This document shows positions 13,914 to 20,046 of a stretch of DNA of 61,822 nucleotides, piece by piece (the first letter of the stretch is position 1; every line of letters starts with the position of its first letter). The notes beneath the pieces are model-generated. The model did not search any database and was not told the DNA's origin. It saw only the letters and a program-made list of their open reading frames with translations. The stretch lies in NCBI GenBank assembly GCA_050010755.1, contig JBEKKK010000006.1, positions 1-61,822 of the forward strand, in the 5' to 3' direction. The DNA comes from Candidatus Bathyarchaeia archaeon (GTDB taxonomy: Archaea > Thermoproteota > Bathyarchaeia > Bathyarchaeales > Bathycorpusculaceae). The translations under genes were made by a program, and so were the position numbers.

Positions 13914-15608
13914 TTGGTTCAAAGATCAAAACGTCAAGACGAAAAGAGGATTGAAGACGTCATGAACTTTAGCAGGCACATTGCTGGGTCCTCCGAAATC
14001 GCTGCGGCATGCTTGTACAGTGACTATTCAAGTTTGTCGACATCAAGGACAGCTACTCAGGTGTTGCTAGTCATAGAAGATTTTCAGCCTAGAATGATGA
14101 ATTATTTTAAGGCTCTCGGGGTGAATACTCTCGTAGTTATGGCCGTTGACAAATGGGTTTTTGAAAGAGATGTGGACAAAGGTCTTCTCGGAGAAGCCCT
14201 TGCTGGCGGACTGGTTTTTCCATATAAGCCAATATTCAATGGAGATTATTTACACCTTCAAGAAGTTATGCTTAAGAGACGCCTGATTTTGGAACTTCTG
14301 CGGAGCCTCGTTATGGACTTTCCAGAACTTTCATACGAGTTCTACATAGAGCCACAATATTTCATGTATGAAACTTGGCTTACGAGGGCCCGCCTTTTCC
14401 CGCCCATGTTCGATTCTCTGTCAAGCCTTGTCAAAGAAAGCGGAAACATCCAACAAACTCTGGACGGTTTCTTAATCGCCTTGAAAAAGCTGGAGGAGAA
14501 CGGAACCATCCGCTTTTCAGGAAACTATGTGAAGATTTCAAAGGAATTCATTGACAAAGCCAGAATCCGCGGTGCACGATTCACGAGTCTCTTGAAGACT
14601 GGGCACAGGGCTCTCTTTGCGTCTTTGCTGGGCACGCTTCCCCAGATGATGAACATTCTTTCACAGAATAGACCTTCATTCATCAACTTCTCCAAAATGC
14701 TCAGCGAAGGCACTAAGGCTGGGAAGCCGTTCGATGATCCGGAGAACTTGGTGTATGTAAAAACTGCCACTGGGCTCGTTCCACTCTCGAACAGAATAGA
14801 TATCGGAGCTTTTGCCAGAAAAGTGCTCGGCGCAAGTGCAGACGCTCGAATTAAAGTCAAAAGGTTAGGCGGTATTTTGAACGACGTCTACCTAGTGAGT
14901 ATTGGTGCCGATGGAAACGAGAAAAAAGTGGTTGTAAAAAGGTTTCGAGACTGGTCAAACTTCAAGTGGTTTCCTCTCACGTTGTGGTCTATCGGAACCA
15001 AAACCTTCGCTGTTCTTGGAAGCTCAAGACTTGAGAGAGAATGTGCAATAAACCGATTGCTTCATTCACAGGGTGTAGCTGTGCCTGATGTCTTATATGT
15101 CAGTCCAAACGAGCGCTTGATTTTCATGGAGTACGTCTTGGGAGAAGACCTGAGCAACGCAGTGAAAAGAATCGTAGGCTCAAAAAAGGATGGTGAGCCG
15201 AAGAGAGACATCGCCCTGATACCAAAGGTCGGCGTCTTGTTCGCGAAAGTTCACGCCCTCGATGTTTCTCTTGGCGATACGAAGCCCGAAAACATTCTAG
15301 TCGACAAGAAAGATGAGCTTTATCTCACCGACTTGGAGCAGGCGGGTCGAAACGGAGATAAAACGTGGGACATTGCTGAATTTCTGTACTATTCTGGCCA
15401 CTATGTCTCCGCATTCGCCGACCCGCACGAAGCTGAATTGATAGCGAAGACTTTTATCAGAGGCTATTTAAGCGCTAGAGGAAATGTGAAGACTGTCAAG
15501 AATGCTGCTAGCACGAAGTATACTAAAGTATTCAGTTTGTTCGCCTTTCCACGCGTGATGGTAGCTCTCTCGAACGCCTGTAGAAGAGCAGAGCAATGGA
15601 ATGAATGA
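13914..15608 (+). CDS. Degenerate nucleotidyltransferase-like N-terminus fused to Kdo/Bud32-like kinase
   Basis: GGILNDVY, VVVKRF, RLERE, FMEYV, LGDTKPENI, TDLEQ, WDIAEFLYY. Confidence 0.7.
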   Translation: MVQRSKRQDEKRIEDVMNFSRHIAGSSEIAAACLYSDYSSLSTSRTATQVLLVIEDFQPRMMNYFKALGVNTLVVMAVDKWVFERDVDKGLLGEALAGGLVFPYKPIFNGDYLHLQEVMLKRRLILELLRSLVMDFPELSYEFYIEPQYFMYETWLTRARLFPPMFDSLSSLVKESGNIQQTLDGFLIALKKLEENGTIRFSGNYVKISKEFIDKARIRGARFTSLLKTGHRALFASLLGTLPQMMNILSQNRPSFINFSKMLSEGTKAGKPFDDPENLVYVKTATGLVPLSNRIDIGAFARKVLGASADARIKVKRLGGILNDVYLVSIGADGNEKKVVVKRFRDWSNFKWFPLTLWSIGTKTFAVLGSSRLERECAINRLLHSQGVAVPDVLYVSPNERLIFMEYVLGEDLSNAVKRIVGSKKDGEPKRDIALIPKVGVLFAKVHALDVSLGDTKPENILVDKKDELYLTDLEQAGRNGDKTWDIAEFLYYSGHYVSAFADPHEAELIAKTFIRGYLSARGNVKTVKNAASTKYTKVFSLFAFPRVMVALSNACRRAEQWNE

Positions 15609-16252: not shown

Positions 16253-17545
16253 CTATTTTTTGTGCAATTCTTGAGCTGCTATGAAAGTCAACCCTTGCCG
16301 CGTTAGAGCTTCCGCTGTTACATTTAGTGCATCGTGTTTATCTAGGTAGTTGATTAGAAGTTCGTGCATCAATCCCTTGTCGGTGATGTCCTTTTTGGGC
16401 ATGAAGTAGTCCAAGATGTCTGATGGGTGTTCTCTTTTTTCTTCAGTTTCGGGTTTTCCGCCTTCATGTTTTGCACTAATGTTTCTTACGTGATTAGCGA
16501 GTTGCATCAGCTCATTTGTGCGGTCGTAGGGCTGTCTAACGATGCTCTTGTACGCTTCCGTGATGTGGTGTTCAATGCGGACAATGTCCTCAAAGCCAAA
16601 GGCCTTTCTGATATGGGCAGAGAGTTCAATCGTCTCGTTATTGACTGAGTTTGAGAGGTTGAAGCCTATGAGGGGAGTGGAACCGTCATCTCTACTGAAG
16701 AGTTTCGCAGTCATCAACGTCCACAGGATTGAGTAGGGGTTGTCGATTCCCAGAAATACCGAAATCTTGAATTCAATGTCAATTCCCAGTTTTCGAAGCC
16801 AGTATCCCAGCAAAACGGTGCCCGGGTTCGTGTTCAGGACCTGCGGAAGGCCGTATTCCGTGTAATAGTGGAGAAACTCGTCTACCCACTTCAACGTGTA
16901 ATCATTTGGAATTCCAATTCCTCCAAAATAACCCGTCATAGTATCCCCGCCGCCCAGATGAATGTTGATGGGTTTGCCGTCAGGTCCCTGCATTGTGCCC
17001 TTCGTGTCTAACGTTTGAACGTAGGAGGCTCCTACAACCTGCATTGACGCTGCGAAGGCCAGGATATCATCGTCTTCAACTTGTTCTTTCATCGAACGCA
17101 CCCGTATGTAACGGGCAGGCATCAAGTTTTTCTGCGCAATCGCTCTCTTTGCCTCTTCGACAATCCAAGGGAAAAAGTTGAACGCACTGATTTCTAGTGT
17201 GATAGCGAAACACTGATCGAACTCTGTCGACTCCGCCTTCTTTCCAAGAATCTTCTTACGATATTCAGGGATGCTGATAAAGGCCTCTTCATCCCGCATT
17301 TTCATGAGCCATCGGAGATCTTTCACGAAGGATGAATTCTTCTTCTCAAGCCTATCCATAAGGTTTTCAATCTTTTGAGCTTCCTTGGCTCTGCGATTAA
17401 TCTCATCCACGCTACCGTACTTATCGACAATTTGGAGAACACTGTCAACCAGAGGGTTATCTTTCCGTAACAGGAAACTGTTTATCTCCTTCAGGTTCTC
17501 TTCGTCAATTTTCAGCCTATCTTTGAGATTAGCCAAGACGGTCAC
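16253..17545 (-). CDS. Conserved hypothetical protein, probable enzyme
   Basis: 430-aa ORF with enzyme-like motifs (TLEISA, HLGGGDTMTGYFGG, RIEHHITE, SAKHEGG, REHPSDILDYF); function not recognised. Confidence 0.8.
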   Translation of the reverse strand: MTVLANLKDRLKIDEENLKEINSFLLRKDNPLVDSVLQIVDKYGSVDEINRRAKEAQKIENLMDRLEKKNSSFVKDLRWLMKMRDEEAFISIPEYRKKILGKKAESTEFDQCFAITLEISAFNFFPWIVEEAKRAIAQKNLMPARYIRVRSMKEQVEDDDILAFAASMQVVGASYVQTLDTKGTMQGPDGKPINIHLGGGDTMTGYFGGIGIPNDYTLKWVDEFLHYYTEYGLPQVLNTNPGTVLLGYWLRKLGIDIEFKISVFLGIDNPYSILWTLMTAKLFSRDDGSTPLIGFNLSNSVNNETIELSAHIRKAFGFEDIVRIEHHITEAYKSIVRQPYDRTNELMQLANHVRNISAKHEGGKPETEEKREHPSDILDYFMPKKDITDKGLMHELLINYLDKHDALNVTAEALTRQGLTFIAAQELHKK

Positions 17546-17757
17546 TTCTCTCTAACTTTTGGATTGCAAACGATTTAAACATTTCAGGCCCTCTAGCGTC
17601 AGACTGAAGTTTCGCTTTGTTCAGACAGGAAGAAGAATCGTCTTGCCGGCTGAAAGCTGAGGTCGCTCATTGTAAATAGTCACGAACGATGTGGTTTGGT
17701 CATCGCAAGACTGAAATGATATAAGAAGCTTGTCGGAATAGGGCATGAGGACCAGCC

Positions 17758-19236
17758 ATGTACAAGCCAGAGGGTATTCTTCCGGCGTTGGTGACGCCGT
17801 TCACTGATGATGGGAAAGCTGTCGATGAGCAGCGGCTCCGCACTTTGGTGAACCACTGCATCGATTTAGGGGTCCATGGGGTTGTCCCCTGTGGGACCAC
17901 CGGCGAGTTTGTGAATCTCACTGACGAAGAGAAGAAGCGGGTAATCAAAATCGTGGTCGACGAAGTCAATGGTCGAGTTCCAGTGATTGCCGGAACAGGA
18001 GCGAGCGGTACGGATGAAGCCGTGGAAATAACTAGATACGCAAAGGACGTGGGTGCTACTGCCGCTCTTATAGTAACACCGTTCTATCTGAAACCCGCAG
18101 ACCGCGGAATATACGAACACTACTTTACGATTGCAAACAAGGTGGACCTGCCGATAATTCTGTACAATATTCCGCAGTGCACTGGCTTACCGCTTCCCTG
18201 GCAGATGGTTGAGGACTTGGCCCAAATACCAAACATCGTAGGCGTGAAAGATAGCAGCGGACAGTTGACCTTCATCCTAGCTGTCCTTGAAAAAGTTAGA
18301 GACAAAATAAACGTGCTTTGCGGACACGACGAAGTCGTCGTGGCTGCACTCGCGGCTGGATGCTCGGGAGCAATCCTCGCAAGCGCCAACGTCATCCCCG
18401 ATGTCTGGATTCAAATTTATGATCACGTGAAAAAGGGCGAGTTGAAACAGGCTCGTGAGCTTCAATACAAAGTGCAGAAAATAGCTAGGATAATAGCGGG
18501 GAGCGGAGCGGTTGGGACAAAAGAAGCACTGAAGATGATGAAAATTAAGGTTGGTCCGGTGAGAATGCCGTTGAGCGTCGGAGGAGAATTGACGTATGAA
18601 TCAAAAGAGGAGTTACGACTCGACCTGGAAAAAATGGGGAAGGTGCAGCCGAAACAGATAGCTTTTGAGGTGGCTGAAAAGCCGTTGGAGGAGCGTTTTG
18701 CGACCGTGGGCATCAGCGCTGAAGCGATTAACAGCTCGAAGATGATTGTCGGCGAAGCTCTAGCCGGGCAAGGGGCAGAAGTTGCCCACATCGACCTCCT
18801 TATTGGAACAAAGGATGGTGCAGTGGCAGAAGCTTTCGCGAGAGCTAAGGCAACGCCAACGTCGGGTCATGAACCACTTTTGGCTATCTTGGAGCCGAAC
18901 CTGTCTGTCAAACCGATTACGCTTATCGTTCCAACAGTTACGATCAGGGGCATGCGGCAAGCAAGCATGGTCTACGGTCCAGCCCAAACAGCTGTGGCCA
19001 AAGCAGTCATCGACAGCGTTGCAGATGGCACGATTCCGAGAGAAGCGGTTGAAGAATTCATTATCATCGCAAACGTTTTCGTTCATCCCTCGGCAGTTGA
19101 CCGGCAACGTGTTTACATAAACAACTACAAGGCGATGCGCCATGCGGTACGGAAGGCCCTGGAGAACCGGCCTAGCATTGACGAACTCATTGAGAACAAG
19201 GACAGGTCAAAACATCCCTTCAAGTATTCACCGTAG
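17758..19236 (+). CDS. DapA-family class I aldolase fused to formaldehyde-activating enzyme (Fae)
   Basis: N-terminal GTTGE, PFY, LYNIP, GVKDSSG; from about 18742 GEAL...EVAHIDLLIG...PNLSVKP...GPAQTAVAKAV...VFVHP...NY...KHPF, typical of Fae. Confidence 0.9.
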   Translation: MYKPEGILPALVTPFTDDGKAVDEQRLRTLVNHCIDLGVHGVVPCGTTGEFVNLTDEEKKRVIKIVVDEVNGRVPVIAGTGASGTDEAVEITRYAKDVGATAALIVTPFYLKPADRGIYEHYFTIANKVDLPIILYNIPQCTGLPLPWQMVEDLAQIPNIVGVKDSSGQLTFILAVLEKVRDKINVLCGHDEVVVAALAAGCSGAILASANVIPDVWIQIYDHVKKGELKQARELQYKVQKIARIIAGSGAVGTKEALKMMKIKVGPVRMPLSVGGELTYESKEELRLDLEKMGKVQPKQIAFEVAEKPLEERFATVGISAEAINSSKMIVGEALAGQGAEVAHIDLLIGTKDGAVAEAFARAKATPTSGHEPLLAILEPNLSVKPITLIVPTVTIRGMRQASMVYGPAQTAVAKAVIDSVADGTIPREAVEEFIIIANVFVHPSAVDRQRVYINNYKAMRHAVRKALENRPSIDELIENKDRSKHPFKYSP

Positions 19237-19245
19237 TGAACTCGG

Positions 19246-20046
19246 TTGACTGAACGGATAGTAACAGATGGGGACTACACGCTTCTCAGCTTGGGCCCGC
19301 GAAAGACCTACATGGTTAGAGTCGAAAAGGGAAAGAGCTTCCACACGCACAAGGGCTTCGTAAAGTTTGATGATCTGATAGGAAGAGAATATGGCTCCAC
19401 GATTCAGAGTAGCCTGGGTTTTGAATTTACGGCTCTGAAACCGCTGCTGCACGACTACATTATGAAGTCCGCGAGACAGACTCAGATAAGTTACCCGAAG
19501 GATATTGCCCTCATCGTAATGTTTAGCGGGATAGGTCCCGGAAGCCGAGTTGTTGAGTCTGGGACAGGAACAGCCGCCCTGACCACCGCGTTGGCGCACT
19601 ACGTCCAGCCAAGCGGCAGGGTATACAGTTACGAAATCAGAGGGGAATTTCAAAAAACTGCTGAGAAAAACTTGACCAGGGCTGAGCTCATCGACTACGT
19701 CGAACTTAAGATCAAGGATGTCACGACAGGAATAGACGAGAGAGACGTTGACTCGGTGATACTCGATTTGGCAGTCCCATGGATGGTCGTTCCGCATGCC
19801 CAAACCGCCTTGAAGCCATGCGGAACCATAGTTTCCTTCAGTCCGACAATAGAGCAAGTCGTCAAGACAGCTGAAGCCTTGAAAGAAAACGGTTTCGTCA
19901 GCATGGAGACAATCGAATGCCTAATGCGCGGAATGCAAGTCGAAAGGGGAAAGACGCGACCCCACACATTAATGACTGGACACACTGGCTATATCACCTT
20001 CGCCCGCAAAGCGATAAAGATTCAGCCTGCCAATTCCGAAACGTAA
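19246..20046 (+). CDS. trmI: tRNA (adenine57/58-N1)-methyltransferase
   Basis: TQISYPKD, ESGTGTAALT, LDLAVPW, FSPTIEQV, GHTGY. Confidence 0.93.
   Translation: MTERIVTDGDYTLLSLGPRKTYMVRVEKGKSFHTHKGFVKFDDLIGREYGSTIQSSLGFEFTALKPLLHDYIMKSARQTQISYPKDIALIVMFSGIGPGSRVVESGTGTAALTTALAHYVQPSGRVYSYEIRGEFQKTAEKNLTRAELIDYVELKIKDVTTGIDERDVDSVILDLAVPWMVVPHAQTALKPCGTIVSFSPTIEQVVKTAEALKENGFVSMETIECLMRGMQVERGKTRPHTLMTGHTGYITFARKAIKIQPANSET

Follow-up and report, generated by a model that had tools for sequence, protein, structure and literature searches.

What reaction is carried out by a protein in which an aldolase of the lysine-biosynthesis type is joined to a formaldehyde-activating enzyme (Fae)? The question is raised by one gene in a stretch of 61,822 nucleotides (hereafter the window, meaning the whole stretch that was analyzed), which comprises positions 1 to 61,822 of contig JBEKKK010000006.1 in the assembly GCA_050010755.1 of a Candidatus Bathyarchaeia archaeon. 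Fae condenses formaldehyde with tetrahydromethanopterin (H4MPT). We found that the aldolase domain of this fusion is not a lysine-pathway DapA, a conclusion that is well supported, and that the fusion is conserved among relatives of the source organism. With a rough probability of 0.45, we propose that the protein interconverts 4-hydroxy-2-oxobutanoate (HOB), or a closely related 4-hydroxy-2-oxo acid, with pyruvate and formaldehyde, and that its Fae domain ties this reaction to methylene-H4MPT. More broadly, the fusion is probably a link between one-carbon (C1) metabolism and a small keto acid.

Domain architecture of the fusion

The gene occupies positions 17758..19236 of the + strand, stop codon included, and encodes 492 amino acids from an ATG start without interruption. 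A class I (Schiff-base) aldolase domain of the DHDPS family covers residues 4-290 (17767..18627, + strand); it matched Pfam PF00701 at 268.7 bits over profile positions 2-286 of 289, and a search of the genome returned the same coordinates. It is followed by a linker of 40 residues (291-330; 18628..18747, + strand), which lies between the two Pfam envelopes and through which the frame stays open, and by a Fae-type domain at residues 331-488 (18748..19221, + strand). The latter assignment is based on PF08714 (207.5 bits, cut-off 27, profile positions 1-158 of 159), on the equivalog-domain model TIGR03126 (217.7 bits, cut-off 118.05) and on an alignment to the structure 1Y5Y. With PF00701 and PF08714 in a single frame, the first-pass annotation, which was made from the letters alone, was right to describe one uninterrupted open reading frame (ORF) containing a full aldolase barrel and a full Fae domain, and the motifs that it had read (GTTGE, the Tyr of TPFY, LYNIPQC, VKDSSG, GHD and AHIDL) were all found.

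Among the NCBIfam models, the N-terminal domain passed the dapA equivalog TIGR00674 (250.1, cut-off 206.15) and scored below the cut-offs of the models for NanA (184.7, cut-off 281), KDG aldolase (128.2, cut-off 390) and KdgD (126.8, cut-off 373.95). The remaining scores for models of the NanA, KDG aldolase, KdgD and HpaI types also stayed under their cut-offs (169.5 against 382 and 212.4 against 396.7). The Fae-Hps model NF009833 scored 180.7 on the fusion, under its cut-off of 274, and the match was confined to the Fae part.

The aldolase domain is distinct from DapA

The Schiff-base machinery of the aldolase is in place. In an alignment to E. coli DapA (the E. coli DapA, NanA, YagE and YjhH references were taken from the annotated K-12 record), Lys164 (18247..18249, + strand) corresponds to the Schiff-base lysine Lys161, Thr47 and Thr48 of GTTGE correspond to T44 and T45, Tyr110 of TPFY to Y107 and Tyr136 to Y133. 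At the position of DapA Arg138, which we take to be the residue that binds the carboxylate of aspartate semialdehyde, the window protein has Cys141 (18178..18180, + strand), preceded by a Gln in place of S137, and at the position of Asp187 it has His190 (18325..18327, + strand), which turns GDD into GHD. The change from Arg to Cys was also seen against solved DapA structures, in which 'lynvpsrt' or 'lynvpgrt' aligned with 'lynipqct' of the query.

These replacements extend throughout the family. In 256 distinct fused sequences, a set weighted to close relatives, Arg138 did not occur once (C in 220, A in 13, V in 10, T in 6, L in 5, S in 1 and Y in 1) and neither did Asp187 (H in 233, W in 14, Y in 5 and four other residues once each). 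In the same set Lys161 was kept in 254 sequences, Tyr133 in 255, Thr44 in 252, Thr45 in 254 and Tyr107 in 250, with Phe in 6 more. Arg138 was present in 55 of 131 stand-alone representatives. Replacement of Arg138 and Asp187 by small or neutral residues would fit a small aldehyde that carries no carboxylate.

Phylogeny likewise places the fused domain apart from E. coli DapA, from the DapA of another class genome and from NanA. In a quick IQ-TREE search on 88 of the 150 available rows (here, as in the alignment of stand-alone representatives, the fragment P0243 and any representative shorter than 250 amino acids were excluded), the fused domains fell into one group of 18 rows, 14 of them fused, with a Shimodaira-Hasegawa-like approximate likelihood ratio test (SH-aLRT) support of 86, and support reached 96 once two more stand-alone rows were joined to the group. 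E. coli DapA sat in a clade of its own in this tree (11 rows, SH-aLRT 97). In a tree of 53 rows, the fusion set (20 rows, SH-aLRT 96) was separate from a 12-row DapA clade (SH-aLRT 96) holding E. coli DapA and the dapB-adjacent DapA of genome G163, and in neither tree did the E. coli NanA, YagE and YjhH rows fall within the fusion clade. Both were quick searches that set the clades apart but leave the order among subfamilies unsettled, and the G163 row is long.

Genome G163 (genomes, contigs and loci are referred to by our own identifiers) carries the fusion as well as a DHDPS gene directly upstream of dapB, the latter with the canonical signature TT, Y, Y, R138, K and GDD. A dapB gene scored over the cut-off in 48 of 181 class genomes (a sample of the 201 genomes used below that does not contain G184), and among the 11 fusion-positive genomes sampled from the window's order it did so only in G163. 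In the source genome of the window (G000), no match to dapB, lysA, the Asd/ArgC C-terminal domain, Hom or HcyBio was found, while control genomes matched for each. The TIGR00674 score is not discriminating here, since the model is also passed by an Arg-less paralogue in G000 (223.4) and by another subfamily in G026 (280.1). The first-pass annotation had suspected that the fusion might not be the lysine-pathway DapA, and the loss of Arg138 and Asp187 in 256 of 256 sequences, the separate clade and the failure to find dapB, lysA, asd or hom bear this out.

The Arg-less paralogue of G000 is a stand-alone protein of 298 amino acids (G000:C1:711092-711988; locus L002, 1483..2379, + strand) in which Phe (YNVPKFSG) takes the place of Arg138 and S/N occupy positions 44/45; its score of 223.4 in the dapA equivalog compares with the cut-off of 206.15. 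The gene adjoins an amidohydrolase-like gene and an apparent membrane-protein gene, as read from their translations, and its clade is a weakly supported sister of the fusion clade in the 88-row tree. In three fusion-negative genomes (G032:C7, G020:C4 and G026:C28; loci L169, L171 and L172) we observed a tight same-strand cluster of asd, a gene encoding 388-419 amino acids and dapB. The middle gene of G032 is aspartate kinase-like (261.3 against 208.7 for the asp_kinases subfamily; 367.7 for NF005159, under 379). As there is no DHDPS gene in these asd-dapB clusters, the dapA of the class lies elsewhere, except in G163.

The Fae domain

Over residues 4-166 of 169, the fused Fae domain matched the M. 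extorquens Fae structure 1Y5Y at 120.4 bits. In its AHIDL motif, His344 (18787..18789, + strand) lines up with the His that 1Y5Y has in 'evahidl', which we take to be the catalytic His of Fae, and the motif Asp is kept as Asp346; a catalytic role is presumed for both. Across 56 fused Fae domains, which were set against 21 Fae(-Hps) domains from this class, the motif His was present in 47 and the Asp in 40, with Glu in another 9. The fused Fae forms a separate subfamily and is not a plain copy of Fae, and the substitutions that mark it out are given below, where they bear on the proposed reaction.

Distribution and conservation

The possibility of a fusion unique to this assembly had been raised in the first-pass annotation; this is not the case, as 51 of 201 class genomes, all 120 database clusters listed and 80 of 80 close relatives have it. 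In a search of 5.8 billion proteins, 7785 of 8000 scored candidates matched the fusion. Both Pfam domains were present in each of the 120 clusters listed (84-97% identity), most of which are exactly 492 amino acids long, and the named database records of the fusion among these clusters are "4-hydroxy-tetrahydrodipicolinate synthase" of Bathyarchaeia. When the aldolase domain alone was used as the query against 1.84 billion representatives, 14 of the top 150 were fused, spread over many separate 50%-identity clusters. A scan of 185,579 species genomes, which reaches close relatives only, kept 80 relatives (75-92% identical), all of them in records titled Bathyarchaeia, Bathyarchaeota or Bathyarchaeales.

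Among the 201 species-level genomes of the window's class, the 51 positive ones had a single stop-free match over both domains, at identities from 100% to 47%. A genome was scored as fusion-positive when its match began no later than query residue 4 and extended at least to residue 469, and genomes with partial or broken copies (G164, G087, G104, G084, G092 and G135) were scored as fusion-negative; the copy in G135 is interrupted by stops. The genomes are mutually related and of the quality of metagenome-assembled genomes (MAGs), and gene absences are to be read as "not found" at the stated completeness. The spread across class genomes and diverged clusters indicates that the fusion is old, patchy in its distribution and kept by selection. 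It is no assembly artifact, and it is under selection.

Tandem duplicates of the fusion were seen in three genomes (G015:C13:12717-15610, G057:C7:3198-6090 and G051:C4:1206-4118). Each pair consists of a full-length copy and a second one, about 50% identical to the window protein, whose match stops at query residue 469. The pairs of G015 and G057 are preceded on the same strand by a gene of the f3 family described below and followed by small ORFs and by ABC-type ATPase-like and terminase-like genes.

One-carbon genes of the source genome

G000 comprises 2.19 Mb in 8 contigs and is 93.5% complete. The first-pass annotation had suggested a check for H4MPT genes and for a separate dapA-dapB; a search for the H4MPT-pathway enzyme Mch (PF02289) returned three matches (best 415.6 bits), with no dapB found in the same genome. 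A canonical Fae-Hps of 488 amino acids is encoded elsewhere (G000:C1; locus L003, 1216..2682, + strand). The three Mch matches, two GlyA genes, PanB and the separate Fae-Hps indicate that H4MPT-linked C1 chemistry is present in this organism.

Replacement of PanB by the fusion was ruled out, PanB being present (317.1 bits), as was replacement of GlyA, for which the genome has two serine hydroxymethyltransferase genes. One of the Mch matches (G000:C1:702633-703571) has an in-frame TAA, which may reflect a pseudogene or a sequencing error. The Fae-Hps of G000 has an N-terminal extension of about 95 residues before its Fae domain, and Fae of other class genomes sits in open frames of about 400-560 amino acids. 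A separate region (G000:C1:377000-391000, locus L067) holds a carbamate kinase gene and two carbamoyltransferase-like genes, one of them over the N-acetylornithine carbamoyltransferase cut-off, together with a ThrC-family gene (NF006050, 358.8), a gene for a 488-amino-acid cysteine-synthase-like pyridoxal phosphate enzyme and a DgcN-like acetyltransferase gene.

Co-inherited genes and genomic neighborhood

Divergent from the fusion in the window lies f2 (16253..17545, - strand), which encodes a conserved protein of 430 amino acids and is considered a partner gene because of its co-occurrence with the fusion. According to the ORF coordinates, the two genes are separated by a 212-bp spacer (17546..17757) that may act as a shared promoter region. 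The f2 protein has 8000 database homologues; it had no Pfam or NCBIfam match and no usable protein-atlas match, and its AlphaFold model is poor (mean predicted local distance difference test score, pLDDT, 54.6). We found f2 in 23 of the 201 class genomes, namely in 19 of 51 fusion-positive and 4 of 150 fusion-negative ones; of the latter four, two have partial or broken fusions and two are only 76-80% complete. Within the window's order, f2 was present in 12/12 fusion-positive and 0/39 fusion-negative genomes. When ORFs of the window locus and 40 further fusion loci were clustered (n = 41), f2 was among the neighbors of the fusion in 9 loci.

A second family, f3 (about 313 amino acids, no Pfam domain; for example loci L040 and L056), directly adjoins the fusion in 7 loci, in varying orientation, and is two genes away in an eighth. 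It was found in 41 of the 201 class genomes (22/51 fusion-positive, 19/150 fusion-negative), and f2 or f3 was found in 40 of 51 fusion-positive compared with 23 of 150 fusion-negative genomes; the Fisher tests on these co-occurrences, and on the anticorrelation with Asd and Hom given below, treat related genomes as independent, so that they are descriptive only and overstate the association. The f3 family is highly conserved (2701 matches, those listed 72-99% identical), and the members that carry a name at NCBI derive from MAGs of Bathyarchaeia, Aigarchaeota, Nitrososphaeria and Asgard archaea. The protein is predicted to form an eight-stranded β/α (TIM) barrel (pLDDT 82.4). Its nearest structures in Foldseek are metal-dependent class II aldolases (1GVF, tagatose-1,6-bisphosphate aldolase, E 3e-8) and ketose 3-epimerases, a likeness at the level of fold class only (template modeling score, TM, 0.43-0.50). 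The f2 and f3 proteins share EIS and FK-S-F-G--NP motifs and their hhalign match is weak (E 3.7e-4 with shallow alignments; E 6e-4 and a probability of 29% with deeper ones); this is suggestive, and they may be remote homologues.

A conserved operon as a guide to function was rejected, since no neighbor family was found in more than 10 of the 41 fusion loci. Most of the recurring neighbors (Alba, ribophorin-like, tRNA m1A methyltransferase and kinase-like proteins) represent lineage-specific synteny; others, away from the window, are subunits of a 2-oxoacid:ferredoxin oxidoreductase, seen in 5 loci, and an S9 peptidase, seen in 4. In the window, the fusion and f2 are flanked by a gene for a 564-amino-acid protein with a weak kinase-like C-terminal region (13914..15608, + strand; Kdo/WaaP, 27.8 bits) and by a GCD14/TrmI-type tRNA methyltransferase gene (19246..20046, + strand) that starts 10 bases past the fusion stop codon. 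Both of these genes recur beside the fusion in the window's order only, and their position therefore looks like lineage synteny.

Proposed reaction and alternatives

We propose that the N-terminal domain acts as a Schiff-base class I pyruvate aldolase working through Lys164, of DHDPS descent and without the residues that would hold aspartate semialdehyde, and that the C-terminal domain interconverts free formaldehyde and methylene-H4MPT. The simplest substrate would be HOB, in equilibrium with pyruvate and an H4MPT-carried C1 unit, and the toxic formaldehyde would be handed between the two domains. The first-pass annotation had put forward such an interconversion, with C1 passed on to H4MPT; this reaction would agree with the logic of the two domains, with the precedent of Fae-Hps and with reports of class I pyruvate aldolases accepting formaldehyde (PMC7918591). 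In the window's lineage, cleavage of HOB to pyruvate and methylene-H4MPT seems the likelier direction, both by analogy with Fae-Hps and because the users of homoserine-level products were not found there; in G000 it would probably supply fermentation with pyruvate and the H4MPT branch with a C1 unit. The fusion may work as a module with the co-inherited f2, possibly related to f3, which may make or consume the keto acid. From sequence, phylogeny and gene distribution, on which all functional readings given here draw, we infer that the aldehyde is formaldehyde and the substrate HOB, as well as the direction, the hand-over between domains and the role of the partner.

Several known systems resemble parts of this scheme. 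Fae-Hps, also a joining of Fae to an aldolase that has formaldehyde as co-substrate or product, occurs in H4MPT-containing archaea, and the excerpts available of its description place the aldolase partner in a pathway that operates towards the release of formaldehyde (PMC5241800); in the fusion, by contrast, the order is reversed, with Fae at the C-terminus, and a class I pyruvate aldolase stands in the place of Hps. In excerpts of work on methanol assimilation, 4-hydroxy-2-oxoglutarate aldolase, a class I pyruvate aldolase of the DHDPS family and in this respect similar to the fusion, is reported to accept formaldehyde and add pyruvate to it (PMC7918591), and HOB is made from pyruvate and formaldehyde by YfaU/RhmA (PMC7918591, PMC8879981). 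The HOB aldolase of the synthetic homoserine cycle (E. coli RhmA/YfaU) shares with the fusion the proposed reaction only. It is described there as a metal-dependent, promiscuous class II enzyme that uses free formaldehyde and no pterin (PMC8879981, PMC7918591), whereas the fusion, which is not a member of that family, has a class I DHDPS-family barrel that is apparently dedicated and is joined to an H4MPT-linked domain. The downstream steps of the cycle, homoserine kinase and threonine synthase, mirror a gene order found in genome G031 (PMC8879981).

Among enzymes closer in sequence, DapA shares with the fusion the DHDPS fold and family, the Schiff-base Lys, Tyr133, Thr44/45 and Tyr107, and differs from it in having Arg138 and Asp187 where the fusion has Cys and His, in lacking the C-terminal Fae and in belonging to another clade. 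YagE, YjhH and NanA, and with them archaeal KDG aldolase, are, like the fusion, class I pyruvate aldolases without Arg138, and they use aldehydes other than aspartate semialdehyde; the signature of L138 and Y187 in the E. coli enzymes is unlike the Q137-C138 and H187 of the fusion. In its overall chemistry the proposed reaction is also similar to that of PanB (ketopantoate hydroxymethyltransferase), which uses a methylene-pterin as donor of a formaldehyde-level C1 unit to C3 of a 2-oxo acid, but does so with another fold and a metal-dependent mechanism.

A number of observations weigh against the proposed reaction. Only 9 of 88 near-invariant columns of canonical Fae are kept in at least 90% of the 56 fused Fae domains, and conserved switches occur at several positions shared by archaeal and M. 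extorquens Fae, namely T372E (51/56), K393T (48/56), F406Y (52/56), Y455N (53/56) and L462H (41/56). A domain so diverged may do something other than canonical Fae chemistry, and the switches could either fit it to its aldolase partner or alter its chemistry. Some members of the fusion clade, all 50%-identity representatives, depart further: P0137, which is fused, has Ala at the position of the Schiff-base Lys, P0135 (757 amino acids) has a transglutaminase-like domain in place of Fae, and in P0130 Fae is scarcely recognizable (36.5 bits). It is the Fae domain alone that points to formaldehyde as the aldehyde, and we know of no source of HOB in these organisms. Further points against the proposal are the variable neighborhood, the likeness of f3 to aldolases at fold-class level only, the weak f2-f3 alignment and the relatedness of the genomes behind the co-occurrence counts, as well as the gene arrangements in G031, G163 and G135, which point to synthesis and are considered next.

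The fusion might run in the opposite direction, with pyruvate and methylene-H4MPT giving HOB, an aminotransferase turning HOB into homoserine and ThrB/ThrC making threonine from it, perhaps with methionine as a further product, so that aspartate kinase, Asd and Hom would be replaced. The fusion would then correspond, in nature, to the aldolase half of the synthetic homoserine cycle. In G031, where neither Asd nor Hom was found, the genes for an ACT/AbrB regulator, the fusion, homoserine kinase (NF002288, 298.2 against 194) and threonine synthase (TIGR00260, 376.3) follow one another on the same strand; hom adjoins the fusion in G163 (NF004912, 430.2 against 373) and lies just upstream of the broken copy in G135, and HcyBio with its ferredoxin partner gene is two genes from the fusion in 7 loci of one lineage. 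The fusion is anticorrelated with Asd (16/51 fusion-positive and 109/150 fusion-negative genomes) and with Hom (15/51 and 110/150), and of the 29 fusion-positive genomes in which neither Asd nor Hom was found, 8 retain ThrB, in 7 cases beside thrC. Such chemistry is reported to work in engineered E. coli, as far as the excerpts of that study go (PMC8879981), and two proteins of G000 exceed threonine-synthase cut-offs. However, the genomes of the window's order that have the fusion are short not only of Asd (2/12, compared with 39/39 of those without it) and Hom (1/12 and 36/39) but also of the consumers of homoserine, namely HcyBio (0/12 and 38/39) and ThrB (1/12 and 24/39), although the absence of ThrB is weak evidence, as many Asd-positive genomes also lack this type of ThrB (0/14 in genome family f11). 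A tblastn search of G000 found no ThrB, Hom or HcyBio, and genome family f4 has only weak ThrC-like matches (1e-19 to 2e-24). The lineage with HcyBio near the fusion keeps Asd in 8 of 9 genomes, and ThrB in the absence of Asd and Hom is also seen in at least 7 fusion-negative genomes (G024, G075, G088, G111, G156, G159 and G198). Moreover, release of formaldehyde from methylene-H4MPT is the opposite of the usual direction of Fae. A supply of homoserine by the fusion in the window's lineage was downgraded because ThrB and HcyBio, too, were not found there; the simpler reading for that lineage is that aspartate-family biosynthesis has been lost and that the module has some other role, probably a catabolic one, and we consider the synthetic direction rather unlikely overall. 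A wider picture, in which a natural, dedicated pathway of Bathyarchaeia makes a C4 keto acid out of pyruvate and H4MPT-bound C1, or splits it into these, by means of a class I HOB aldolase joined to a specialized Fae and of a new family of TIM-barrel enzymes (f2/f3), and feeds homoserine kinase and threonine synthase in G031-like lineages, is doubtful.

The aldehyde could also be a different one (glyoxylate, glycolaldehyde or acetaldehyde), or hydroxypyruvate could be the donor, with Fae repurposed for another aldehyde-pterin adduct, as a regulatory ligand site or as an oligomerization scaffold. A wide range of aldehydes is used within the DHDPS family, to which E. coli YagE, YjhH and NanA (Leu138, Tyr187) also belong, and the switches at positions invariant in canonical Fae, the members with a degenerate Fae or a dead aldolase and the canonical Fae-Hps already present in G000 would all be accommodated. 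This explanation nevertheless seems to us unlikely, since the His/Asp motif is kept and TIGR03126 is passed well over its cut-off, both domains are intact in 51 genomes at 47-100% identity, the NanA, KDG aldolase, KdgD and HpaI scores in NCBIfam are all under cut-off, and the fusion clade is apart from E. coli NanA, YagE and YjhH. It is still less probable that an aldolase and a formaldehyde-detoxifying Fae are two independent activities, fused for co-expression only and without a common intermediate. Fae is widespread in Bathyarchaeia and is interpreted as formaldehyde detoxification in the portions available of a class-wide study (PMC10321748), but an architecture held down to 47% identity, conserved substitutions that are peculiar to the fused Fae as opposed to the stand-alone type, tight co-inheritance with f2 and a second Fae (Fae-Hps) in G000 all argue against mere co-expression. 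A genuine lysine-pathway DapA that bears a Fae domain, as in the public annotation, is suggested by the database names, by the TIGR00674 score and by the best solved-structure matches, which are all DapAs. This is already contradicted, and in our view extremely improbable, given that Arg138 and Asp187 are missing throughout, that the clade is separate, that TIGR00674 does not discriminate, that dapB, lysA and asd were not found in G000, and that the single fusion-positive genome with dapB among the 11 sampled from the order (G163) has its own canonical dapA beside it.

Significance of the fusion

The two domains are each of a known family. In the full-text literature searched, subscription journals being outside the search, we found no account of a DHDPS-Fae fusion, nor any of the Arg-less aldolase subfamily, the diverged Fae subfamily or the partnership with f2/f3. 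In the available portions of the class-wide genomic study, fae is named only as a widespread detoxification gene (PMC10321748). The fusion is misannotated as a lysine-biosynthesis enzyme in every named database record listed, and about a quarter of the sampled class genomes (51/201) carry it. As a consequence of this misnaming, metabolic reconstructions will wrongly credit these archaea with a step of the diaminopimelate pathway and may count the gene as a plain 'fae'.

Pyruvate-formaldehyde aldol chemistry is described in the excerpts available to us only from promiscuous enzymes in engineered methanol-assimilation pathways (PMC8879981, PMC7918591). If the proposed interconversion of HOB with pyruvate and formaldehyde is correct, the fusion would be the first natural enzyme dedicated to this chemistry and the first to be tied to H4MPT, and it would give a function to the large, conserved and unannotated protein family f2/f3. 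A thermodynamically tuned, formaldehyde-shielding aldolase of this kind would also be of interest to synthetic methylotrophy. Should the more doubtful C4 keto acid route that feeds homoserine kinase and threonine synthase in G031-like lineages prove true, it would be a version in nature of the homoserine cycle that has been engineered, and a new C1-assimilation route or a bypass of the aspartate pathway in very abundant archaea.

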